From Candidatus Harpocratesius repetitus (GTDB taxonomy: Archaea > Asgardarchaeota > Lokiarchaeia > Sigyniarchaeales > Promethearchaeaceae): DNA of 32,000 nt. This document shows, one piece after another, positions 5,818-25,613 of this stretch. Position numbers and translations under genes: made by a program. The notes beneath the pieces were generated by a model that was not told the DNA's origin, did no database searches, and saw nothing but the letters and a program-made list of their open reading frames with translations. Location: the NCBI GenBank assembly GCA_021498095.1, contig JAIZWK010000001.1, positions 1,200,001-1,232,000 of the forward strand. The letters run 5' to 3'. Each line of letters begins with the position of its first letter. Position 1 is the first letter of the stretch.

Positions 5818-6951
5818 ATGCCTGAACCACGAAAAACCCCATTATATGATATGCACGTTAAACTTGGGGGTAGAATTGTAAATTTTGAAGATTGGCTGAT
5901 GCCGGTCCAGTTCGAAGGAGTTATTGTTGAGCATAATTGGACACGTCAACATGCCGGTATCTTCGATATTTCGCACATGACAGAATTTATGGTTGAAGGT
6001 CCAGACACAATTCCACTTTTAAAAACTCTCTTGACAAATAGTATAGGAATAGGAGATTTTAAAGCACAATATAATCATATGTGTTACCCCAATGGGGGAG
6101 TTGTAGATGATCTCTATATTTATCGAGAAAGTGAAGAAAAAGTGAGGATTATTGCCAATGCACAACCATTCGAAACAGAAGGAAAAGATTTTAATTGGAT
6201 AAGGGATCACATTGGAAATCTTAATGTTACTATTACAGACCTCTCGTTAGAACGGGCTCGATTTGCATTTCAAGGACCTGAAACAATGAAATTATTAAAT
6301 CCGATTACAACAGATGACATTACTACAATTAAACGGTTTAATTGGATTTATACTGAAGTAAAAACCACTAAAGGAAATATTCCTATATTTCTTTCTCGTA
6401 CAGGATATACAGGAGAAGATGATTTTTCACCAGAATTAGGTTCTTTTGAAATTAGCTGTGATAAAAAATATGCTGAAATTATTTTCCAAACCTTTTTGGA
6501 TACTGGTGCAAAACCAATTGGCTTGGGTGCACGAGATTCATTACGACTAGAGTGCTGTTTTGCACTTTATGGCCATGAAATTAATGAGAATATTACCCCA
6601 ATTGAAGCAAACCTTTCTTGGGTTGTTAAAGAAAAAGAAGGGTTTCAATTTATTGGACAAGATGTAATTTTAAAACAGAAAAAAGAAGGAACTTCCAGAA
6701 TTAGTGTAGGTTTAAATCTTGTCAATAAAGGAATTCTTCGACATGGATATAAAGTATTTAAAGATGGAAAAGAAATTGGTTATATTACATCTGGAACCTT
6801 TGCTCCAACTGTAGGAAAATCCGTCGGACTTGCATTAATTGAGAGTAAATTTAAAGAAATTGGACAAGAACTAGATGTTCAAATACGAAACAAGTTTAAA
6901 AAAGCAGTTGTTGTAAAAACACCATTTTATTCCAGAGGAAGAAAAATTTAA
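5818..6951 (+). CDS. gcvT: Glycine cleavage system T protein (aminomethyltransferase); ATG at 5818 is preferred over GTG at 5791
   Basis: RKTPLY, AGIFDISHM, SRTGYTGED, GLGARDSLRLE, TPIEANLSW and GYITSGTFAP motifs; GGAAGGG lies just upstream of ATG 5818. Confidence 0.96.
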   Translation: MPEPRKTPLYDMHVKLGGRIVNFEDWLMPVQFEGVIVEHNWTRQHAGIFDISHMTEFMVEGPDTIPLLKTLLTNSIGIGDFKAQYNHMCYPNGGVVDDLYIYRESEEKVRIIANAQPFETEGKDFNWIRDHIGNLNVTITDLSLERARFAFQGPETMKLLNPITTDDITTIKRFNWIYTEVKTTKGNIPIFLSRTGYTGEDDFSPELGSFEISCDKKYAEIIFQTFLDTGAKPIGLGARDSLRLECCFALYGHEINENITPIEANLSWVVKEKEGFQFIGQDVILKQKKEGTSRISVGLNLVNKGILRHGYKVFKDGKEIGYITSGTFAPTVGKSVGLALIESKFKEIGQELDVQIRNKFKKAVVVKTPFYSRGRKI

Positions 6952-7069
6952 TATCTTTTAAAAACAACTTGCGATCAACAATCATTAAAAAGTAATCATG
7001 TATTACCCCAATTATCATCCTTGATCTTTGGGAGACTTTTTTTTTCATAAAATCAAATGGTGAAACGTT

Positions 7070-7447
7070 ATGGAATTTCCAACAGATTTAAAATATGCCG
7101 AAACTCACGAGTGGGTTAAAGTGGAAGGTGATATTGCCATTGTTGGTATTACCGACCATGCTCAAGATCAACTCGGAGAAATCGTTTTTGCTGAATTACC
7201 AGAAGTAGGCGATACCTTTGAGAAAGGCGAAGAAATGTGTAGTGTAGAAAGTTCTAAAGCTGTAGGTGAAGCACTTGCTCCTGTTTCAGGTGAAATCGTT
7301 GAGATCAACGAAGCCTTAGAAGATGAACCTGAAAAAATTAATGCTGATCCTTATGGTGAAGGATTTTTAGTAAAGATCAAGATGTCCGATCCGAGCGAGT
7401 TGGATTCTCTTTTGGATGCAGAGGGGTATAAAGCCACTCTTGGATAA
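7070..7447 (+). CDS. gcvH: Glycine cleavage system H protein (lipoyl carrier)
   Basis: THEWV, VGITDHAQDQLGEIVF, lipoyl-Lys motif VESSKAV and INADPYGEG. Confidence 0.97.
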   Translation: MEFPTDLKYAETHEWVKVEGDIAIVGITDHAQDQLGEIVFAELPEVGDTFEKGEEMCSVESSKAVGEALAPVSGEIVEINEALEDEPEKINADPYGEGFLVKIKMSDPSELDSLLDAEGYKATLG

Positions 7448-7555
7448 ATAGACTTCGTGATTTTTTTGGTATTCTATATTGTTATCTTTTTTTTATTTCT
7501 TTCATTTTCGTTTTTTCCTATTCCAATTATTTATAATAATTAAAGAGGCAAAACT

Positions 7556-8884
7556 ATGGATTACGTTCCTCATGATAATAAAGAAATTGCAGAAATGTTA
7601 GCTGCAATAGGTGTGGATTCATTAAGTAATTTATATCAAGACATTCCAAAGGATTTAATCTTGGATCAGTTGAATCTCCCTAATGGAATTTCTGAACCAG
7701 ATTTATTGAAAGACCTTACAAAATTATCTGAAAAGAATAAACAATACTCCACTGCATTTATTGGTGCAGGTTCATATTTTCATTACATTCCTTCCCTTGT
7801 CGATTTTGTGATAAGCAGAAGTCAATTTTTTACCGCATATACACCATATCAAGCAGAAGCAAGCCAAGGATTTTTACAAGCTATTTTTGAATACCAATCA
7901 GCAATTGCTCGCTTAACAGAATTAGATGTTACTAATGCTTCAATGTATGATGGTGCTTCAGCATTAGCAGAAGCTGCTATTATGGCTGCATTTTTAACTC
8001 GAAAAAAGAAAATTCTTCTCATCAAAGGAATTCATCCTGAATATGTGGAGACTGTAAAAACATATTGTTGGGGAAGGAATTTTGAAGTCGAAGAAATCAA
8101 CTTAGATCAACTAGAAGAAAAAGTAAATTCCGAAATTGGTGGTGTTTGTTTTCAAAGTCCAAATTTTTTTGGTGAAATTGAAAATGCAAACGAAATTGTA
8201 ACTAAAGTTAAAAACTTGAATAAGAAAACTTTGGTTATTCAATGCATGACCGATCCTACTTGTTTAGGTGTGTTAGTTTCTCCAGGAAAAACTGGTGTGG
8301 ATATTTTTGTAGCGGAAGGTCAAAGTTTTGGATTACCTCCATCATTTGGTGGACCTGGACTTGGAATATTTGCAACTCATGATAAATATACTAGAAAGAT
8401 GCCTGGACGTTTAATTGGATTAACAAAAGAAATTAATGGAGATAAAGAAGGTTTTGTTCTAACTTTACAAGCGCGAGAACAACATATAAGACGTGAAAAA
8501 GCAACTTCGAATATTTGTTCTAACCAATCTCTTTGCATGCTTTCTGCATTGGTTTATTTGGTCAGCATGGGAAAAACTGGTTTGAAACAGATTGCTATGC
8601 AAAATATCCAAAAATCTTATTATCTTAAAACAAAATTAGCAGAAATCTCTGGATATCAAATTCTCTCTAATAAACCTACATATAATGAATTTGTTGTAAA
8701 GTGCTCGAATTATCAAAAATTAAAAGAATTATGCAAAGCTAATAATATTCTCCCTCCCTTAGATTTGACTCGATATTATCCAGAAATGAAGAATTGCGCT
8801 CTAATTTGCGTAACTGAGCAGAATTCTAAGAAAGATATTGAATTATTTTTACAATTAGCAAAGGAGGCGGCTCAAGCCGAATAG
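7556..8884 (+). CDS. gcvPA: Glycine dehydrogenase (decarboxylating) subunit 1
   Basis: FIGAGSYFH, FFTAYTPYQAEASQG, NASMYDGASALAEA, GQSFGLPPSFGGPGLG and LQAREQHIRREKATSNIC. Confidence 0.96.
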   Translation: MDYVPHDNKEIAEMLAAIGVDSLSNLYQDIPKDLILDQLNLPNGISEPDLLKDLTKLSEKNKQYSTAFIGAGSYFHYIPSLVDFVISRSQFFTAYTPYQAEASQGFLQAIFEYQSAIARLTELDVTNASMYDGASALAEAAIMAAFLTRKKKILLIKGIHPEYVETVKTYCWGRNFEVEEINLDQLEEKVNSEIGGVCFQSPNFFGEIENANEIVTKVKNLNKKTLVIQCMTDPTCLGVLVSPGKTGVDIFVAEGQSFGLPPSFGGPGLGIFATHDKYTRKMPGRLIGLTKEINGDKEGFVLTLQAREQHIRREKATSNICSNQSLCMLSALVYLVSMGKTGLKQIAMQNIQKSYYLKTKLAEISGYQILSNKPTYNEFVVKCSNYQKLKELCKANNILPPLDLTRYYPEMKNCALICVTEQNSKKDIELFLQLAKEAAQAE

Positions 8885-11704: not shown

Positions 11705-13432
11705 TTAAAATTCTCTAAGTTCAACCAAAATGGGCAGAATTTCTTTTAAGAATGAACCTGATTTTTTATGAAGTAATAGATTATATAATGGACTATTTGG
11801 ATAGACATAAAAATTATCAGGATCTTTAAATTTTTTTAACATTCTTTTTAATTTAAACCAATACATTAGATTTGAAGAAAATATATCGAATCTAAGTGTC
11901 TGCATGAATGTTCTAATTAAATCTGTTGAAATCCAACAAATAGTATGAATATATCCATATTTTGGATAAAGGTTCAACTGTAATTGTTGAGAAAATTGCT
12001 CCATTGTTTTACAATGTTCTGTATTTTGTTTTTTCTTCAAATTATTTTTAGAATATATTTGATGGCTTTTCTGTGATAATTCTTTTATGGAATCTGCTGA
12101 AATAAATGAAACTGATTGAATTTTATTTGTATTTATGGACCAAAGAAGACCAAAATAATTTTCTTGAACAGAAAAATTATTTGAATGATTAAGTATATGA
12201 AAATTATCTCCAAAAATGGCTAAGATTTTTCCTTCAACACCTATATTTTCAAATGCATTCGTAATGACAAACCTTGGAATATTCCAATATGCTAATTTTC
12301 TAATATTTAATGGAATTTTAAATGCATACTGCCAATACCTAAATTGTTCATTCATAATTAGAGGCGATGGATGCATTAACCACTCAAATTCATACGAACG
12401 GTAATTTTTAATAAGACCTTGGAAAATAATATCCAGTCGATATAGACTTACTGGGAATGTGCTTTGAATAAACATTTCAATATTTTTCAATATCGGAGCA
12501 AGATCAAAAATAAAATTTGTTGGTGTATTGTACTTTTTCTTTAAATATTTAAGATATTCCAATTTGGATTTGTTATTTTTCATATGTTTATCTAAAAGTG
12601 AAGGATTTAATGGTAGATATTTTATTAATATTGATGGATTTCGAGAATCAACTAGATACGCAATTACTTTTGTCGAAGATTGAATTGATAATGAAAATTT
12701 TTTTCGAGGAAAACAATTTTTAATGAATGATATTAATGTATCTTCCAATTGAGATTTGGAATCTTCTAATATAAAATCAAATGTTTCATTTATTCCATCA
12801 ATGAAACGAGTAAAATCTGTTTCGGGAAAGCATTCAAAAAATATTTTTTCCTTATTATTGCGATTTCTTGCTTGTATAAAAAGCAAAGAGTATTTTACAA
12901 TAACTTCGATGAAATCTAATTGTTGACTAATTGTATGTGAAAAAATCGAAAAAAGCTCTTCAATAAAGTTATTTGAGTAAATATGAATATTTCCAATATT
13001 TAAATTATATTTTTTCTTGATTATTGGCAAGATTTCATCGAATTGTTCTTTAAGAGTTAATTTTTCTTTAATTTGATTATTAAATAGTGAAATATCCATA
13101 GAATTGATATTTAATAATAAGCCTTCATTTGTACATTCTATTAAATAAGCGCGTGATGGTGAACCTTCTTTATTTAAAATTATTTCAATCGAATTTGCAT
13201 TTGTATTAAGAATATAATAATAAAAAGCGCTCCAAAATTCTTGAAATGCAGAAATATCACAGGTTAGATTCAAAAAGGGAATTTGAAAGAGTTCGTATTG
13301 AAATTGCTTATTTTTTTGATAATACTGGGTTGATTCAAATATTATTTTCATATTATATTGTAATTGAGCTTGAGTTGAAGATTCTGTTTGATAATTCTTC
13401 AAATTTTTTTCATGATTATCATGCTTAAGCAC
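11705..13432 (-). CDS. Hypothetical protein (575 aa), no family recognised
   Basis: Long uninterrupted ORF in AT-rich DNA; its start overlaps the stop of the upstream 693-aa gene by 8 nt. Confidence 0.75.
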   Translation of the reverse strand: MLKHDNHEKNLKNYQTESSTQAQLQYNMKIIFESTQYYQKNKQFQYELFQIPFLNLTCDISAFQEFWSAFYYYILNTNANSIEIILNKEGSPSRAYLIECTNEGLLLNINSMDISLFNNQIKEKLTLKEQFDEILPIIKKKYNLNIGNIHIYSNNFIEELFSIFSHTISQQLDFIEVIVKYSLLFIQARNRNNKEKIFFECFPETDFTRFIDGINETFDFILEDSKSQLEDTLISFIKNCFPRKKFSLSIQSSTKVIAYLVDSRNPSILIKYLPLNPSLLDKHMKNNKSKLEYLKYLKKKYNTPTNFIFDLAPILKNIEMFIQSTFPVSLYRLDIIFQGLIKNYRSYEFEWLMHPSPLIMNEQFRYWQYAFKIPLNIRKLAYWNIPRFVITNAFENIGVEGKILAIFGDNFHILNHSNNFSVQENYFGLLWSINTNKIQSVSFISADSIKELSQKSHQIYSKNNLKKKQNTEHCKTMEQFSQQLQLNLYPKYGYIHTICWISTDLIRTFMQTLRFDIFSSNLMYWFKLKRMLKKFKDPDNFYVYPNSPLYNLLLHKKSGSFLKEILPILVELREF

Positions 13433-15506
13433 TTTTATTTTCCTCCTTGATATCTTCTTGAAAATCCTTAGGGTTCTTTAATGAAATTTTCTCTTTATCC
13501 TCAACTAATTCTTTTTTTAATATAGATTTGTTAAGAAAATAATTTGAAAATCTCTGTAACTGCATTAAAAATCTTTTTCGTCTATGTTTCTTTTCTTCTT
13601 TTTTGAGATTCTTAAGTTTTTTCTTTAATTCAAGAATTTTAGGGTCATAATCATTTTTTATTTTTTGTTGAGCTATTTTTTCTCGAATTTTGAATTTTTT
13701 AAATTCTTGATTTCTTTGATCTTTCACTTTTTTTAATTTTCTCTGAATTTCGGGTAGAAGGGGTGTACTTATCTCGCTAATTGTAGTTTTTAGAACTTCT
13801 TTAAGTTGAGTAATTATTTTTTTGTTCCATTCGTTTTTAGGATTTGAAAATTGATAAAATGGGATGAGTTTATTATAAAAGAAGTGAAATGATGGAGCTT
13901 CTTTCTTTGACCATTTTTGTTTTAAATAGGGAATAAAATCTAAACCTGATAATGCTACAGATGGGATTCTTATTATTTTTTGATTAATAATAATATTTGG
14001 TTTTTCTAATTTTATTTTTCGAATCTCATTTTTTATTAACAAATCAATCCTTATTTTTTCGATTTTGGTCCGAAGATTTTGAATTTTCTGCGCATTTTTC
14101 TTTTTAGCAGTCAAAATTAATAGATTTCGCTCTTCTTCTATTGATTTATCACTAATAGAATCAATAAAAGCGTTTATTTTTGTTTCAAGTTTTTCGATTT
14201 TATTTCTTATTTTTCTTTGTTTTCGAAGAATTTCACGTTCAAGTTCATCATCATCAAGTATTTGATTTCCACCGATTTCAAAATCAATTATTTTAAAAGG
14301 TTCTTTTGGAAGCTTATTTTTGTCTAATAATGTAAATGGTGCATTTAAAGTGGATTTTATTGCATTTTCTCCAAAAATTATGATCCAATCTGCTTGTTTT
14401 GGCACCGGAGGCTTATTTCCTATTAATAAAGCAATATGATTTACATTTTGAAAATCATCAAATAAAAGATCATTTAATAAATCAGGAATGTGATAAGCAA
14501 AAAATCCTTCTTCTTCTGAAAGTTCGCCGAAATAAGTGTGAATGTGGAATTTTTGCAGACGATTCTCTTTTATTAAATCAGAGACTGCGAAAGAAGAAAG
14601 ATTGTTGTCAGTTAACAGTTCAAGATCTTTTTTGAGGTTTTGATCAAATATTTCTCTAAAAATTGGATAAAAAAAAGATTTTGAAAGAGTTTTCTTAAAA
14701 TAGTGATAAGTCATATGTTCTATTTCAGAAAATGAATCTGAAAGAAAAATCATCTTTGGTTTAAGAGGAATAAGTGTAGGATCATAAATAATTGAGTTTT
14801 TAGAAATTATTGAAAAAGCACTTGAAATAAAAAGTGTCAAAATTTTTTTTTTAGCAGGATAATTACCTTGTATATAATTTTTAGAATTCATCTTTTTTGG
14901 GAAAAAATGCAATAACCAATTCCATATCCATTGGGCTTGCAAAAGTTCATTTGAAGTGATTTCTTCGGATGGATAAACTGAAATTTTATTAAATAAAGAT
15001 TGAAAATTTAATTGAAGTTGATAGAGAAGTGTCGAGCCAGACCATAATGTATTTTCATCCAGCAAACCAATTTGAGTATAAAGAATAACCGTTTTAAATG
15101 ATTTAAATGTAGGAATTGAATTATCTTTTTTTTCAGTCTTAATTTCATTATCAATAATTGAGCTTATTGCTGTGATTTTATCAGGATATAGAATGGAAAT
15201 ATTCTCTCTTTTTAGGAAAGCACCTAGTCCCCAATTTTCTAATACGCGCTCTGAATTATAATTTATTGGTAATGAAGGTAAAATTGTAATGCATCCTGAA
15301 AAATTCTCAGTTAACCATTGAATTAAAATTATTAGAGAATTTGGATTTATTGACCAAGGATATCCCACGATTCCTGGAATATCTACTATTAAAAGAATTG
15401 GCTCTTCAATATTATTCTCCTGATTTAATATATTTTTCTTTAGTTTGAATAATATATCTTTAAGTGTTTCTTCTTCTGTATCGTTTTGAGCTGCAATTAC
15501 AACCAT
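13425..15506 (-). CDS. Hypothetical protein (693 aa), possibly a degenerate DUF362-like core with Lys-rich coiled-coil insertions
   Basis: Long ORF. The N-terminal ILLIVDIP..PWSINPNSL and later IIIFGENAI..IRIPS segments loosely recall the DUF362 layout but lack Cys; two long K/E/R-rich heptad stretches. The family call is tentative. Confidence 0.7.
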   Translation of the reverse strand: MVVIAAQNDTEEETLKDILFKLKKNILNQENNIEEPILLIVDIPGIVGYPWSINPNSLIILIQWLTENFSGCITILPSLPINYNSERVLENWGLGAFLKRENISILYPDKITAISSIIDNEIKTEKKDNSIPTFKSFKTVILYTQIGLLDENTLWSGSTLLYQLQLNFQSLFNKISVYPSEEITSNELLQAQWIWNWLLHFFPKKMNSKNYIQGNYPAKKKILTLFISSAFSIISKNSIIYDPTLIPLKPKMIFLSDSFSEIEHMTYHYFKKTLSKSFFYPIFREIFDQNLKKDLELLTDNNLSSFAVSDLIKENRLQKFHIHTYFGELSEEEGFFAYHIPDLLNDLLFDDFQNVNHIALLIGNKPPVPKQADWIIIFGENAIKSTLNAPFTLLDKNKLPKEPFKIIDFEIGGNQILDDDELEREILRKQRKIRNKIEKLETKINAFIDSISDKSIEEERNLLILTAKKKNAQKIQNLRTKIEKIRIDLLIKNEIRKIKLEKPNIIINQKIIRIPSVALSGLDFIPYLKQKWSKKEAPSFHFFYNKLIPFYQFSNPKNEWNKKIITQLKEVLKTTISEISTPLLPEIQRKLKKVKDQRNQEFKKFKIREKIAQQKIKNDYDPKILELKKKLKNLKKEEKKHRRKRFLMQLQRFSNYFLNKSILKKELVEDKEKISLKNPKDFQEDIKEENKSA

Positions 15507-15561: not shown

Positions 15562-16869
15562 TCAAATTATAGAAAATCGATTTGTTATTAATCCCGCTTG
15601 ACTTTGATATTCTCCATAGGCTTTGCCTTGTTTTGCCAATTTACCTATAATTTCATGAATTTTAGGAGATACTTTACCATTTGGCTCATTTTCAAATGGG
15701 GTACCAGGAAGGGGCATAAATGTATGTGTATGTATCCTGACATTGGATAAACGATTTGTGAGAACCTCTTCAAAAAAATTAATGTTTGCTTCAATATCAT
15801 CAATTGTTTCGCCGGGAAGTCCAAAAATAAAATCAATTTCACATTTGTATCCAAATTGATTTAATATTTCAATTGCATGATAAATGTCTTCAATTGTATG
15901 CCCACGCCCAATTTTTCTCAATAATCGGTTTGAAGCAGATTGAGCTCCAAGAAGAATCTTCTTATTCGCTAAAAAAGGAGAGATTGCTTCCATTACTTCA
16001 TGAGTTACTGATTCCGGTCGAACTTCACTGGGAAAAGTTCCAAAATAGATTCCTTTGATGTTTTTTATATCATAAATATGAGAAAGAAGTTGATAAAGCA
16101 TATCTACATTGGGTGTGACTCCATTTCGTGAGCCGTAAGCAAATGCATTAGGTGATAAAAACCATAATTTATCATATTTAATTTCAGCACCTAATTTAAT
16201 CCATTTGATTAACGCGTCTAGTGGTGCATGTCTCATGGATTGACTTGAATTTCCAGTTTGGCAGAATTTACATCTAAATGGACAACCGCGACTGATTTCA
16301 ATTGGACCAAATAAGCGAAAATATGGAGAAAAAGAAGGTGTTTTTCCCAATTCGTGAAGTTGTGGGGGTTTAGCTGGAATATATTGTGGAAGAGTGCGCG
16401 CCACACCATTTAATTGAGAAACATCTATTTGGTCTTTTGATTCATGTAATATTGCATGAAGTAGTTGTTGAAAGGCAACTTCTCCTTCATTTGGTACAAT
16501 AAAATCAATGTCATGTCTCAATTTTGCAAATTTTTCTGGAACTGCACTAACATGAGCCCCTCCAACGATTGAAACAGTATTGTTATGATATTCTGAAAAG
16601 AAATGGGGAAATTCTTCATGAAATTTAATGAACTGGGGAATTTGAATGGATAATAAGGAATATGCCAAAATAATAATATTATATTTCTGAAAATTAATCT
16701 TTATCAAGGCATCTCTATGTTTAGGTGCATTATATAAATGAAAAGAGAGCGGGTGGAAATCATAATGCTTGATCAATTCTGGATCTTGCTCTAAATAGCC
16801 CATTAAGATTGCCCACGTATAACGATTAGGCTTATCATAGCCAAACAACACTAATCCTTTCTTTATCAT
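15562..16869 (-). CDS. B12-binding domain / radical SAM protein (MJ1487-like family)
   Basis: N-terminal cobalamin-binding-type domain (IVGGAHVS, GEVAF), EISRGCPFRCKFCQT (CxxxCxxC), FLSPNAFAYGS, GTFPSEVRPE, FIFGLPGE and HTFMPLPGTPF. Confidence 0.9.
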   Translation of the reverse strand: MIKKGLVLFGYDKPNRYTWAILMGYLEQDPELIKHYDFHPLSFHLYNAPKHRDALIKINFQKYNIIILAYSLLSIQIPQFIKFHEEFPHFFSEYHNNTVSIVGGAHVSAVPEKFAKLRHDIDFIVPNEGEVAFQQLLHAILHESKDQIDVSQLNGVARTLPQYIPAKPPQLHELGKTPSFSPYFRLFGPIEISRGCPFRCKFCQTGNSSQSMRHAPLDALIKWIKLGAEIKYDKLWFLSPNAFAYGSRNGVTPNVDMLYQLLSHIYDIKNIKGIYFGTFPSEVRPESVTHEVMEAISPFLANKKILLGAQSASNRLLRKIGRGHTIEDIYHAIEILNQFGYKCEIDFIFGLPGETIDDIEANINFFEEVLTNRLSNVRIHTHTFMPLPGTPFENEPNGKVSPKIHEIIGKLAKQGKAYGEYQSQAGLITNRFSII

Positions 16870-19618: not shown

Positions 19619-20908
19619 ATGAAAATGAAATTACTCAATGTCAAAAAAAAATTTCAATGTCCTATTTGTGGAGCGAGTTCAATAAATCAAGAATATTTTT
19701 CATCTGATAAACATAAGGAAACTAAAAAGCACAAAGATGCCTTGAGATCAATTAAACTACCTCAAATCCCGAATAGCTTTTTATCACAAATATCTAAAAC
19801 TCAATCTTTACTTTCAAATGTATTTAAAAAAGTTCTTTTAGATTGTAGGAAAATTCCTTTTGAAGAGATCTTTTCTAATTTAATTATTTCTCTAAAACCA
19901 ATATTTGAAATATTAAAAAGATTATATGAGTATCCAATTAAATCAAATAAGCAAAATATTGAGTTACTTAGAAATTATCATTCAAATGAAAATTTGGCGT
20001 TAATTTTAGGAGCGGGTGTTTCAATTGAGGCAGGGATACCATCATGGAGAGGATTATTAGGTCATCTTTTGAAAAAGGCACTTATATCTTCAAAATTAAT
20101 AAAGGATGGAAAAGAAGAGATGTATGCAAATCTAATTAATCAATTTCTTTCTTTCAGTAATTTAATCGATGCAAGGCTGATTGAAGAAATGATGGGGAAG
20201 GAAGAAATGATCAATGAAATAAAAATATATCTTTATGATTCATTAGATGAAGATTGGAAAAATAAATCAAATATCTTATCAAATATAGTAGATTTAGTTT
20301 CACAACGTACCAATATTCAAATAATCAGTTATAATTATGATGATTTACTAGAACAGATTTTTGATGAGAATGAAATAGCTTATGAAATTAAATATTCTGA
20401 GAATAATTCATGGAAAAAGGGCAATGGTGTAAAAATTTTCCATGTTCATGGATTTCTGCCCCAATTTAGAGAATACGAATCAAATAAAATAGTATTCTCA
20501 GAAGAATCATATAATAAATTATTTGATAACCCACATAATTGGACAAACAGTGACCAAATTCACTTATTGAGCAATTCTCACACTCTAATTATTGGACATT
20601 CATTTTTAGATCCGAATATCCGAAGATTATGTGAATTAATTGCCAAAAATAAAACTCAAGATCAAAATATGAACCATTTCATAATTTTAAAACATCCTCT
20701 AGCCGAATTATTGGATTTTGAGAATAATTCAAAAGATAAAAAAGAAAAATGGGTATTTATGGAAAATGAATCTTATCAAGATATATATAATTTTCTTAAT
20801 GAGTTGGCTGAAATATTTAAGCAAATGTTTTCTAAATTTGGTATAAATATTTTATGGATTTACAAATTTAGTGATATTTCTCGAACTTTATTAAAAATAA
20901 TGGAATAA
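19619..20908 (+). CDS. SIR2-like (SIR2_2-type) NADase-domain protein with an N-terminal C2H2 U1C/matrin-type zinc finger; putative defence effector
   Basis: LALILGAGVSIEAGIPSW, IISYNYDDLLE, IFHVHGFL, IVFSEESY and LIIGHSFLDPNIRRL motifs; N-terminal C-x2-C-x14-H-x5-H. Confidence 0.88.
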   Translation: MKMKLLNVKKKFQCPICGASSINQEYFSSDKHKETKKHKDALRSIKLPQIPNSFLSQISKTQSLLSNVFKKVLLDCRKIPFEEIFSNLIISLKPIFEILKRLYEYPIKSNKQNIELLRNYHSNENLALILGAGVSIEAGIPSWRGLLGHLLKKALISSKLIKDGKEEMYANLINQFLSFSNLIDARLIEEMMGKEEMINEIKIYLYDSLDEDWKNKSNILSNIVDLVSQRTNIQIISYNYDDLLEQIFDENEIAYEIKYSENNSWKKGNGVKIFHVHGFLPQFREYESNKIVFSEESYNKLFDNPHNWTNSDQIHLLSNSHTLIIGHSFLDPNIRRLCELIAKNKTQDQNMNHFIILKHPLAELLDFENNSKDKKEKWVFMENESYQDIYNFLNELAEIFKQMFSKFGINILWIYKFSDISRTLLKIME

Positions 20909-21580: not shown

Positions 21581-22549
21581 TTAATGGATATATTCATCTA
21601 ATATAATTGTTTTCAGTTTTTTGGTTATACTCTTTTTAATTTCATCAATATTATTTTTTAGAGTACTAACTTTTCGAGGTACTATTTTGTAATTATTTGA
21701 ATTTATTTTCATTAAAATCGATCTATTTTTTCTGTATTTCGTTTCTGATACATAATTTAGAAATTTTCTTATAATTTTTATTATAGCTTTTTTATCTTCA
21801 TGCCCAAAATCAAATCTATCTACTACTTCGGAGAAAATAGCATCATAAAAATCTTCATCCCTAAATTGCCTGTCTATTGTTGAAATTTTCTCAAATAGAT
21901 AACTTCCAAAAAATTTTACAAGTAATTTTCCTTGCCTCCTAGAAATTGGTGAGTTATATGCTCGATTATCATTTTTATAAGTTAAATCACCTAATGTAAA
22001 TGGAATTTTAATTATGTCAGAATAATTTGATATATATGAAATAAGATCTGGATTAGAAGATGGAAAATTTATTCTCATATTTGAATCAACACCAAAATTA
22101 TAATTATTTCGATTTAAAATTAAATATGAATCGCTTTGATCATAAGAAATAAATTTGAGAAAGTCTGAAACAAAAATAGAATCAATAAAAAGATATATTA
22201 GAAAAAGCTTTCCAGATTCAGCAGGAAATATAAGAGAGTTCCAATGACTTGGCTCTAAAGAAGATAAGACACAATATTGTTTTTTTATCCTCGATTGTTC
22301 ATCTTTCTTCTTTTCTTTTTCTTCTAATGATAATGAAGATCGTATTAGGGAAATGTTTTTTTTTATTATTTTAATTTCAAATATGTAGTAATTTATATTT
22401 TTAGGATCCCCACATTTCACTATATAATCGATTTTCGTTGAGCCTAAACTATTTTTAACCTTCAATTCTGCAATTGAGAGAAAGTCTCCTTTTTCTTCGA
22501 AATAGTTATATAATAAGTTTATTAATCTGGACGTTAAAGATATATTCAT
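21581..22549 (-). CDS. PD-(D/E)XK restriction-endonuclease-like protein (322 aa); the start is probably ATG at 22549, not 22648
   Basis: N-terminal E..KIDYIV..IFEIK..KQY fits the PD-(D/E)XK motif; ATG 22549 lies 4 nt after the upstream stop, avoiding a 95-nt overlap. Confidence 0.7.
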   Translation of the reverse strand: MNISLTSRLINLLYNYFEEKGDFLSIAELKVKNSLGSTKIDYIVKCGDPKNINYYIFEIKIIKKNISLIRSSLSLEEKEKKKDEQSRIKKQYCVLSSLEPSHWNSLIFPAESGKLFLIYLFIDSIFVSDFLKFISYDQSDSYLILNRNNYNFGVDSNMRINFPSSNPDLISYISNYSDIIKIPFTLGDLTYKNDNRAYNSPISRRQGKLLVKFFGSYLFEKISTIDRQFRDEDFYDAIFSEVVDRFDFGHEDKKAIIKIIRKFLNYVSETKYRKNRSILMKINSNNYKIVPRKVSTLKNNIDEIKKSITKKLKTIILDEYIH

Positions 22550-22553
22550 AATT

Positions 22554-23792
22554 TCACATCTGTAATGTTGTTCCGTCAATTTCAATTGATATATTTGGTG
22601 AAAAATATTTTTGAAGATTAGTAAATAACCTGAATACATTATTCCCACAACAATTCTTATGTAAATTTAAGTATATTTTATCATCAAATACTTGAGCGTA
22701 GAAATGATCTCCATTATGTAAATCTGCGACTCTATAATAATCATAATTGATTTCGGAGTAAAGGTTAGTAAAGTAGAGCTTAAATAGACTCGAAATATTG
22801 TTTAGTCTTTTTACAAAATTCTTACGCTTTATTTTATCATCGAAAATAATTTGGATAAGTTTTCCCTTATTTTCTTTTGGAACATATCTATATGATTCTA
22901 TTTCATTCAATTTTTCTCTATAAGTATCTAATATATCATTTACAAACTCTATATGTCTAGAAAAATCTGTTCCGTTGTTAACTGTAAATCCACCTTTATA
23001 TGTGAATTCCTCCTTTAATATTTGAGAATTATCTTCATCTTTAAAATAGCACATTAGAGATTTATAATTGATTGGAAGATCTGCTTTATATAAGGATTTT
23101 AAAGTATTCTCGAATGAATGAGGTGTTCCTGCCCATAATCTTAAAGAATATTTTAGATTGTTAATAATAGTGGGATCTTGAAATACATCAAATCCTTCTC
23201 CCATTGAATTTCTAAGTTTTTCTTCTTCTCCTTCATCTTCTTCATTTTCCTCATAATTATCATCGTCGTCTTCATCATCAAAGATATTCTCATCGATGCT
23301 ATCATCGATAAATGATTGTTCAAAATTTAAACTAAATCCCCCTGGAAAGATATCATCCTCTTCAATTTTTGATTTCATCATAGTATTAGTTAAATAAATA
23401 CTATCTTGTTTATAGAAATCTTGAAAAATGTTTTGAATATATTTTTTTATTTTTGTTTGAGGTTCTTTATTATATATTATCCAAAATCTTGGGATTTCTG
23501 CAACTTCTTGCTTTATATAAAAAAAATACTGCTTTTCTTCTGTTTTTAATTCGAGGGTTTTAAAATATTTTTCTCTTGATTCATGTAAAATAAGTTTTGC
23601 TGGATTCTTCTTTCTTTTATTATTCCAACTTTTAATTAAAGAATCCAAAGTTTGGTTAGATTCAATTATATTAGTTTTAATACTGGTACTTATTCTTTTT
23701 TTCCTTTTTTTTTTATTTATGTCAATATTTTGTATATATTGCTGAAAATAATTGAACCAGTCTTTTTCATAATCAAATATTTTTGTATCCAT
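22554..23792 (-). CDS. Hypothetical protein (412 aa) with a central poly-acidic loop; partner of the downstream nuclease
   Basis: Long ORF; acidic run DDEDDDDNYEENEEDEGEEE; folded-looking segments RFWIIY, ADLHNG and CCGNNVFRLFTNLQ. Confidence 0.8.
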   Translation of the reverse strand: MDTKIFDYEKDWFNYFQQYIQNIDINKKKRKKRISTSIKTNIIESNQTLDSLIKSWNNKRKKNPAKLILHESREKYFKTLELKTEEKQYFFYIKQEVAEIPRFWIIYNKEPQTKIKKYIQNIFQDFYKQDSIYLTNTMMKSKIEEDDIFPGGFSLNFEQSFIDDSIDENIFDDEDDDDNYEENEEDEGEEEKLRNSMGEGFDVFQDPTIINNLKYSLRLWAGTPHSFENTLKSLYKADLPINYKSLMCYFKDEDNSQILKEEFTYKGGFTVNNGTDFSRHIEFVNDILDTYREKLNEIESYRYVPKENKGKLIQIIFDDKIKRKNFVKRLNNISSLFKLYFTNLYSEINYDYYRVADLHNGDHFYAQVFDDKIYLNLHKNCCGNNVFRLFTNLQKYFSPNISIEIDGTTLQM

Positions 23793-23820
23793 ATTTTTAT
23801 CTTACTTGAATGTTAATTTA

Positions 23821-23828
23821 AATATAAA
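23821..23828 (-). promoter_or_regulatory. TATA box for the 412-aa/nuclease operon
   Basis: TTTATATT on the minus strand, about 29 nt upstream of ATG 23792. Confidence 0.5.
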
Positions 23829-24450: not shown

Positions 24451-24834
24451 TCATTTTATTTTTTTATTAATTTTGTTAATTTCTTTCTTTAATTCTTTTT
24501 TTATCTTTTTTCCCTCATCAATTGCTTTTCGAGCACCTTTCCCAAAAGATTTTGTTCCAATTCTAATTCCTTCACTAATTTTTTTTGTTCCTTTTTTAAA
24601 ACGCTCGCTAATTTTTATTGCATTTTCCTTGAATGTTAGACCAAATAGTTCGAAGTTTAATGTTGATGAATCTATATTCGGGTTGTTGATTTTTGCTCTT
24701 TCTGTTTCGGGTAATTGAAATCTTTTCCCGCAATTCTTGCAAATAATCCCTTTTCCTTTTTTTAATGAACTGATTAAAGATTTTGTCAAAGGTGCTCCAC
24801 AATTTGAACAATATAAATCATTTATATCCTTCAT
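24451..24834 (-). CDS. Zinc-ribbon protein with a Lys-rich C-terminal amphipathic helix
   Basis: YCSNCGAPL..IICKNCG (two CxxC pairs); ATG at 24834 preferred. Confidence 0.75.
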   Translation of the reverse strand: MKDINDLYCSNCGAPLTKSLISSLKKGKGIICKNCGKRFQLPETERAKINNPNIDSSTLNFELFGLTFKENAIKISERFKKGTKKISEGIRIGTKSFGKGARKAIDEGKKIKKELKKEINKINKKIK

Positions 24835-25613
24835 ACAGAACACTATGATTTTGTTTTATAAAAACTTTTTCTGATTAATATCCATTCATTATAAAATTTT
24901 ATTCTAATAAAGACGAAATGATAAATATTTGGCGCCATCATGAAAACTTTGAACTAAATAAGAAATTAAACCAAAAATTATTGAAATTTTGTTTTCATTC
25001 AAATAAATTAAGTGATGTTAATTTGCAGGTTCCAATTAGAGGAAATGATTAATATTTTGCATTGCACTTGAAATACAATTATGATCTATTCTCATGTGTT
25101 CCACTTGCAATACGAGAAAAGTGGTTCTTGAGGGAAATCACCCTTTTTGAACGAATATGTGCGTGTATACTATTAAAAGATGAATAATTGAAGTTTTTAA
25201 AAATATAAAAGAGATTTTTATAGATGTGAATTGACATGGTTTATGTGAATTTATGTTTATTAATAGATTCTGAACTTAAAAGGAAATGAAATCATATCAT
25301 GAGATCAATTAGTCTAAAGTCGCTCGCGCAGCTATTGGAAAGAAATTAGCAGAGATGCGTTTTTTGGTTGAATTCAGTAAAGAAAGTCAAATAACATTAG
25401 AAGATGCTAAAAATAAGGTCAAAAGTAAATCAAAATCAATGAGTATTATGATTCTAAATAAATTGGGGATCTCACATATCTACAAACTTATCCGCAACAA
25501 AAAAATTTTTGATCACTCTTGTTCAATAAAAAATTGTTATTATTGATAAAATAAAATTTTGAAGAAAAAAAGAAAAGAGAAGAAGAAATAATAATAAATA
25601 AAAATAATATAAT

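Follow-up and report, generated by a model that had tools for sequence, protein, structure and literature searches.

A two-gene MJECL33/MJECL32 cassette of an Asgard archaeon as a candidate defence module pairing a DNA-clamp-like protein with a predicted nuclease

The question raised by the locus analysed here is what two adjacent and co-oriented genes, which we call A and B (proteins P0001 and P0002, respectively), do in the genomes that carry them. The two genes lie in a 32,000 nt-long stretch of DNA, hereafter the window, corresponding to positions 1,200,001-1,232,000 of the Candidatus Harpocratesius repetitus genome (4.36 Mb, one contig), whose nearest named relatives are Promethearchaeia (Asgard archaea). 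The window has a guanine-cytosine (GC) content of ~30% and also holds a proteasome subunit gene and further archaeal housekeeping genes. An initial annotation of this DNA, made from the letters alone, had read the pair as a sensor or scaffold plus a nuclease, a defence unit that was possibly modification-dependent and that might cooperate with a nearby SIR2 gene or be independent of it. On the evidence given below, the reading that we favour, with a probability of about 0.55, is that of a candidate defence module not described before, where a nuclease would be gated by a partner that binds DNA.

In nearly all the loci recovered, B lies directly 3′ of A in the same orientation. Among Asgard archaea this arrangement was present at loci L001, L005, L006, L010 and L018-L023 and, in a set of 400 Asgard genomes, all the genomes with a strong match to A (8/8) had B or its remnant adjacent and on the same strand, so that the pairing assumed in the initial annotation proved to be conserved. 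Of the 400 genomes, 11 had A, which was missing from both of the genomes that belong to the same genus, and a further homologue search with the A profile added almost nothing. A very divergent B with the same motif order follows A in Halopenitus, in two Nitrososphaerota, on the Methanocaldococcus jannaschii plasmid and on plasmids of Lysinibacillus, Halobacterium, Bacillus cereus and Metabacillus. The pair, named here after its Pfam families MJECL33 (A) and MJECL32 (B), is best read as a horizontally mobile two-gene cassette, whose members stay together in hosts that range from Asgard archaea to Bacillaceae.

Modelling of the complex, named as a check when the pair was first annotated, gave for A and B a prediction score of 0.77, against 0.00 for the best control. 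A score of this level was attained by 58 of 80 solved complexes, compared with 2 of 110 mismatched pairs, counts that hold only roughly here since custom alignments were used for the complex prediction. The runs agreed in at least 96% of the contacts, with a partner predicted local distance difference test (pLDDT) value of at least 82. Precisely, the predicted interface joins the lobe-3 sheet of A (residues 340-378, including the invariant D357, H359 and G361) with helix 209-225 and residues 178-183 of B, beside the invariant P183-F184; as the predicted contact uses conserved residues, it would explain much of the sequence conservation. These models support the binding of A and B to each other.

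As regards A, a precomputed match to PF25924 (MJECL33) was on record for this protein and for every homologue, and a hidden Markov model built from the Asgard A proteins matched MJECL33 at 4.1e-39. The AlphaFold2 (AF2) model of A, obtained from a 17-sequence alignment, had a pLDDT of 83 and a predicted template modelling (TM) score of 0.83, and consists of an N-terminal helix followed by three alpha+beta lobes with the TBP-like strand-helix order, residues 164-211 being disordered. Foldseek and the exhaustive VIA search agreed on the best solved structural matches, which were (with the two values recorded for each match in brackets) CENP-L (7.8; 199), RdgC (7.0; 177), Iml3 (6.9; 170), CENP-N (5.9; 104), the RnlA/LsoA repeat domains (5.8/5.3; 99/78) and RexA (4.8; 93). 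The model of A superposes on members of the RexA/RdgC/IML3/CHL4 class over most of a domain pair, and these proteins have been described as one fold class of non-specific DNA binders (PMC11077077). Among predicted structures, MJECL33 itself (Q60290) was the first match in the Foldseek search of AFDB Swiss-Prot (TM 0.70/0.70, E 1.6e-21), followed by AF_0896, and the MJECL33 Atlas clusters matched the A model at TM 0.76-0.84. No catalytic fold was recognised in A by the structure searches. Lobes 1 and 3 are basic, and this charge is the sole indication for non-specific DNA binding by A. The view of A as a non-enzymatic-looking protein of scaffold or sensor type with a DNA-binder fold, close to what had been initially annotated, is supported by these model-based matches.

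No meaningful match was obtained when A and B were scanned against the local Pfam, NCBIfam and PADLOC models (PF25924 is absent from the local Pfam copy), and the searches of PDB profiles with the A and B family profiles returned chance matches only (de novo TIM barrels, a viral polyprotein). An A-like three-lobed fold was also seen inside SF2 helicases of 720-1090 aa (AFDB clusters A0A133XWX8 and A0A1E3VK59 and Atlas clusters of ResIII/DEAD/Helicase_C proteins; TM by query 0.34-0.45), which may be fused sensor-plus-motor versions.

B carries the conserved acidic/lysine motif (E ... D ... (D/E)xK) of the PD-(D/E)XK superfamily. In an alignment of 20 full-length B members, E28, D41, E58 and Q91 were invariant and K60 was kept in at least 90% of the sequences; D41 stands mostly in 'PD', most members read 'PD ... 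ExK', and Y92 follows Q91 in most of the 20 members, having been invariant in a first five-member alignment. The D..ExK..QY centre reported for B in the initial annotation is hence real. The secondary structure predicted around the motif residues is a helix, then three strands and another helix. Relatives of B are few, as a HMMER scan of 1.84 billion representative proteins gave just 40 of them and a word-based homologue search with B returned the query itself only. There is no precomputed Pfam match on record for P0002 itself, and for this reason we consider B as a divergent member of PF27326 (MJECL32). In fact, when the 20-member B alignment was used as the hhalign query against MJECL32 and four distant partners (from Lysinibacillus, Halobacterium, Halopenitus and a Nitrososphaerota metagenome-assembled genome), the match had a probability of 96% and an E value of 2.8e-9 over 269 columns, with the motifs in register. 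Language-model features also put B beside the PF27326 Atlas clusters (score 0.92), one of which bears the automatic name 'putative PD-(DE)xK superfamily endonuclease'.

At the motif region of B there were sub-threshold Pfam matches to HSDR_N_2 (in 3 members), L_protein_N and DUF234, which we take to be nuclease-type PD-(D/E)XK families. The N-terminal domain of B was compared by hhalign with a three-sequence HSDR_N_2 alignment, and the motifs lined up one for one at a probability of only 3.6%. As a whole, B is basic. Foldseek and VIA searches with a four-sequence model of B resolved the C-terminal winged helix only; the C-terminal domain that the initial annotation had called helical does exist, and it is more precisely a winged helix. 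We consider B as a putative PD-(D/E)XK-type nuclease on the basis of the motif, the secondary structure and the weak profile matches.

The contexts in which the pair was found are rich in defence and mobile-element genes, in line with the defence setting initially proposed. Defence-like neighbours include a SIR2_2 gene in the window and a TIR_2 gene at L002, while on the M. jannaschii plasmid the pair has as neighbours an OLD-type ATP-dependent endonuclease, an EVE protein and VapBC. In B. cereus the pair adjoins Hachiman hamB and a MazF-annotated gene; in Metabacillus a reverse transcriptase and the same MazF-annotated gene are nearby. PLDc_2 and RE_endonuc proteins are encoded next to the pair at L013, and a DUF499 ATPase at L011; a ResIII helicase was recorded as well. 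Integrases and a transposase are also found next to the module.

A co-oriented gene for 238-245 aa, annotated as PemK/MazF-family toxin, precedes the pair in the Bacillaceae (L034, 2152-5334, on the B. cereus plasmid pBFR_2; L035, 2406-5553, on the Metabacillus plasmid), and this suggests a three-gene variant.

Several copies of the cassette are decayed. At L009/L017, loci otherwise near-identical to the intact L001, B is deleted: positions 7098-7291 of L009 keep the first 31 and the last 40 codons of B, the internal part having been cleanly removed, to be compared with the intact B at 3165-4139 of L001, and A is intact in both. B is frameshifted or split at L002-4 and at L012, where, on a Nitrosopumilus chromosome, the gene in the position of B (6823-7694) consists of two open reading frames (ORFs) of 128 and 147 aa in different frames; either the gene is genuinely split, or the break reflects a frameshift or an assembly error. 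None of the loci recovered was seen to combine a broken A with an intact B. The genome of the window has a second copy of A (G000:C1:187233-188329; L015/L016), split by a frameshift into 361 and 69 aa and with no B downstream; since an adjoining 331-aa ORF has a Cas6-like glycine-rich C-terminal motif, this copy was placed beside a cas region.

The positions of the features in the window are reported in Table 1. Reading of the minus strand and translation confirmed the coordinates of the two-gene unit and its spacer as initially annotated, and the start codons of both genes were fixed by the alignments of homologues; the longer, GTG-started ORF for B in the mechanical list (22648) is unsupported, because the homologues begin at the ATG position. 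As for the TATA box that had been ascribed to the pair, a TTTATAT heptamer is well placed before gene A, and heptamers of this type are not enriched in the AT-rich window (70 observed vs 84 expected); being no commoner than chance, the element makes a promoter of gene A plausible and no more.

Table 1. Features of genes A and B in the window (positions are those of the window; residue numbers refer to the encoded proteins)
Feature	Position	Strand	Description
Gene A (P0001)	22554..23792	minus	412 aa, stop TGA 22556-22554; PF25924 (MJECL33) family, three TBP-like lobes, RdgC/RexA/CENP-L fold class
Gene B (P0002)	21581..22549	minus	322 aa; divergent MJECL32-family protein, predicted N-terminal PD-(D/E)XK-type core and C-terminal winged helix
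A-B spacer	22550..22553	minus	4 nt separating the stop codon of A from the start codon (ATG) of B; coupling of operon type
TTTATAT, TATA-like heptamer	23822..23828	minus	30-36 nt 5′ of the gene A ATG; possible archaeal promoter, short or no leader
A, lobe 1	23421..23681	minus	residues 38-124, basic; conserved K39, E44, Y92, R102-F103-W104
A, acidic disordered insert	23160..23303	minus	residues 164-211, 48 aa, net charge -20; only in the subclade of the window (P0001, P0004, P0005)
A, lobe 2	22896..23153	minus	residues 214-299
A, lobe 3	22578..22856	minus	residues 313-405; invariant D357-x-H359-x-G361, C382-G-N384...R388; beta-sheet is the predicted B contact
B, catalytic-motif stretch	22274..22468	minus	E28, D41, E58-x-K60, Q91-Y92 in a predicted alpha-beta-beta-beta-alpha unit
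B, winged-helix domain	21665..21943	minus	residues ~203-295; its first helix (209-225) is predicted to contact A

Around the pair, the GC content is 0.24-0.27 in an island that extends from ~19 to ~25 kb of the window and ~0.30-0.34 on either side. The SIR2_2 gene (19619..20908, plus strand; Pfam 1.1e-19) is convergent with the pair and lies 672 bp from the stop of B; its protein has an N-terminal Cys/His zinc-finger-like stretch, and no TIR or SMC partner was seen in the island. Domain scans found no methyltransferase or ATPase domain in any ORF >100 aa of the island (18.4 to 25.6 kb of the window), as had been stated initially, and no methyltransferase domain in such ORFs of the flanks, which speaks against a classical restriction-modification system.

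As another observation on the surroundings of the pair, a zinc-ribbon protein of 130 aa, with two CxxC pairs and a lysine-rich C-terminal tail, is encoded upstream of it on the same strand (24451-24843, minus), and no homologue of this protein was seen beside the pair in other loci. Elsewhere in the window, a radical-SAM/B12-binding gene (15562-16869) has downstream of it two big overlapping ORFs of 575 and 693 aa (11705-15506, minus), in another stretch of low GC content (0.24-0.26); neither had any Pfam, NCBIfam or PADLOC match, and they make up a further unassigned gene pair.

The comparison with catalogued defence systems gave no match for either A or B. In PADLOC-DB 2.0.0, which we assume to cover Azaca, Aditi, Bunzi, Hachiman, Shedu, Kiwa, Gabija and the PDC candidates, no family was found at E values up to 1 for P0001 and P0002, nor, with the E value limit at 0.1, for the pairs from M. 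jannaschii, Lysinibacillus and Halopenitus, and no NCBIfam model describes A or B. This agrees with the earlier statement that the pair is not a restriction-modification, McrBC or HerA-type system. The initial annotation had also allowed for a distant version of a catalogued multi-gene system: both proteins do fall in catalogued Pfam families, MJECL33 and MJECL32, but these are of unknown function and correspond to no described system.

Considering the pair as a defence module, we propose that A and B form a heteromeric, DNA-directed endonuclease, in which A would be the DNA-binding or sensing and gating subunit and B a Mg2+-dependent cutter, with lobe 3 of A predicted to grip the first helix of the winged-helix domain of B. 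The complex would attack invading DNA (of a virus or a plasmid) or kill the infected cell. Besides the pairing, the motif of B, the model of A and the predicted complex, we count in favour of this reading the low GC content of the island, the patchy occurrence among the 400 Asgard genomes, the defence-like neighbours and the decay pattern. As there is no methyltransferase, discrimination of self from non-self would have to come from DNA structure, free ends, modification or a trigger sensed by A. The 48-residue acidic loop in the A of the window might, more speculatively, mimic DNA from within the protein and so hold the complex inactive before a trigger arrives, and the module would work independently of the neighbouring SIR2 gene. 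A more specific formulation, which we advance tentatively and with somewhat less than even odds, is that MJECL33/MJECL32 is a new archaeal and bacterial defence system, in which the RdgC/RexA-fold clamp A senses invading or abnormal DNA and releases the tethered B, without ATP or methyltransferase, the acidic DNA-mimic loop providing autoinhibition in an Asgard subclade.

Some results weigh against the defence module. B had no significant profile match to a known PD-(D/E)XK family in the Pfam, PDB profile and hhalign searches, and its AF2 model, from 4 sequences, had a pLDDT of 57, with ~45-55 in the N-terminal half. The lack of any PADLOC model matching either protein is to be counted here too, as is the outcome of the literature searches, in which neither family was described, whether under its name, a locus tag or a protein accession or in surveys of archaeal defence. 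Moreover, the neighbours are ordinary metabolic genes at L001, L010, L012 and L005, and the contexts were listed locus by locus. Finally, the decay pattern comes from few and partly related loci, and some of the splits could be assembly errors.

The main rival is that the cassette is a selfish, toxin-antitoxin-like addiction unit, in which B would be a toxic nuclease held by stoichiometric binding of A, so that the cassette secures its own retention and defence, by abortive infection, is secondary. We consider this unlikely, although addiction or abortive infection would be compatible with the defence reading, the two being not mutually exclusive. The tight complex predicted for A and B, the residence of the module on plasmids and the VapBC or MazF-annotated genes that adjoin the pair in M. 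jannaschii and in the Bacillaceae are in its favour, as are the decayed copies, where B has been lost or broken and A has not, a pattern to be expected of a B that does harm by itself. Nevertheless, A is large (~360-410 aa), three-lobed and more conserved than B, unlike the typical small labile antitoxins; its fold is that of a DNA binder and not of an inhibitor or regulator, no autoregulatory helix-turn-helix was seen in it, and the decayed loci in the sample are few. We regard as improbable the explanation in which the pair serves the DNA processing of mobile elements (replication, resolution, integration or partition), with A as RdgC-like modulator of recombination and B as structure-specific nuclease or resolvase. 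RdgC, the best bacterial structural match of A, does modulate recombination, the module is found on plasmids and next to integrases and a transposase, and A matches the function-unknown viral family phrog_22469 (distant B proteins match phrog_27163). Against this, no match to A was obtained among 50,697 phage records, no integrase, replication or other mobile-element backbone gene was recognised beside the pair in the window and in most Asgard loci, and what moves between very different replicons is the bare two-gene unit.

Cooperation with the SIR2 gene, which the initial annotation had put forward, would make the pair part of a three-gene system combining an NADase and a nuclease with the convergent zinc-finger SIR2 gene. 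The short distance, the common low-GC island and the matches of the SIR2 protein to the defence-type PADLOC models LmuA (4e-17) and ThsA (1e-16) would fit such a system, but the gene and the pair converge and are thus not one operon, the pair adjoins quite different defence genes in other genomes, and, among the other loci retrieved by then, none had a SIR2 homologue by tblastn. We rejected this cooperation since the linkage is not conserved, and hold the three-gene system to be very improbable. Equally little credit can be given to a housekeeping factor of the host for DNA repair or chromatin: the fold class of A does include RdgC and kinetochore DNA binders, but a housekeeping role is at odds with the patchy distribution in the phylum and the absence from both of the genomes of the genus, with the low GC content and with the existence of plasmid-borne and pseudogenised copies.

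If the defence module as formulated above is real, the RexA/RdgC fold would be extended to a new type of immune sensor, one that also occurs in the archaea closest to eukaryotes; in the latter, the fold is shared by the kinetochore proteins CENP-L and CENP-N. With an immune function, the pair would bring to archaeal and bacterial defence a small nuclease module that does not depend on ATP and whose partner protein, of the RdgC/RexA/CENP-L fold, is of a new kind, and two function-unknown Pfam families would be given a role. Archaeal immunity beyond CRISPR and restriction-modification is poorly charted, and the module is found in Asgard, halophilic, methanogenic and ammonia-oxidising archaea; its cultivable Bacillus and Halobacterium carriers make it directly testable. 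Should the pair be an addiction module instead, a recurrent cargo of plasmids and islands would still be explained.

The closest comparison is with MJECL33/MJECL32 of the large extrachromosomal element of M. jannaschii (PF25924 and PF27326; UniProt Q60290 is MJECL33), two adjacent ORFs in the same gene order as A and B, with overlap or near-overlap. The order of the motifs (HTxLxN...PD...ExK...Y...PF) is common to MJECL32 and the B of the window. With 438 aa against 322 aa, MJECL32 is the longer of the two, and MJECL33 does not have the 48-residue acidic insert. The two ORFs only lend their names to Pfam families without a known function, and in the literature searched the pair is undescribed.

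Two further candidates were set aside. A showed a weak fold likeness to a DUF4868 protein (AFDB cluster match of rank 28, TM 0.28/0.39), the family of Kiwa KwaB, which binds invading DNA (bioRxiv 10.1101/2023.02.26.530102); kinship with Kiwa was rejected on account of the weakness of this match, the lack of a KwaA-type membrane partner and the lack of a PADLOC Kiwa match. Nor was the pair equated with the operon of a histone, an RdgC-like protein and a winged-helix membrane protein (PMC11390915), because histone features are lacking from the ORFs that precede A in the window and in Halobacterium, the upstream gene of the Bacillaceae is annotated as PemK/MazF and B is without a membrane segment.

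Among the systems with related folds, lambda RexA (of RexAB exclusion) and E. coli RdgC have no sequence similarity to A, which has a third lobe; moreover, in RexAB the partner RexB is a membrane protein, whereas B is a soluble predicted nuclease, and there was no PADLOC Rex match. DpnI-type (type IIM/IV) enzymes combine a PD-(D/E)XK core with a winged helix, as B is predicted to do, with no sequence relationship to it, and, unlike them, B needs, or at least always travels with, its partner A. Hachiman, formed by the PD-(D/E)XK-type nuclease HamA and the helicase HamB, has no PADLOC model matching A or B, and, as A has no ATPase or helicase domain, energy-dependent scanning of DNA as in Hachiman would not be expected here. 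By analogy, the layout of the pair resembles in logic only that of Hachiman and of other two-gene systems made of a nuclease and a sensor, in which a nuclease effector is under the control of a DNA-interacting partner, with no methyltransferase and with residence in defence islands.

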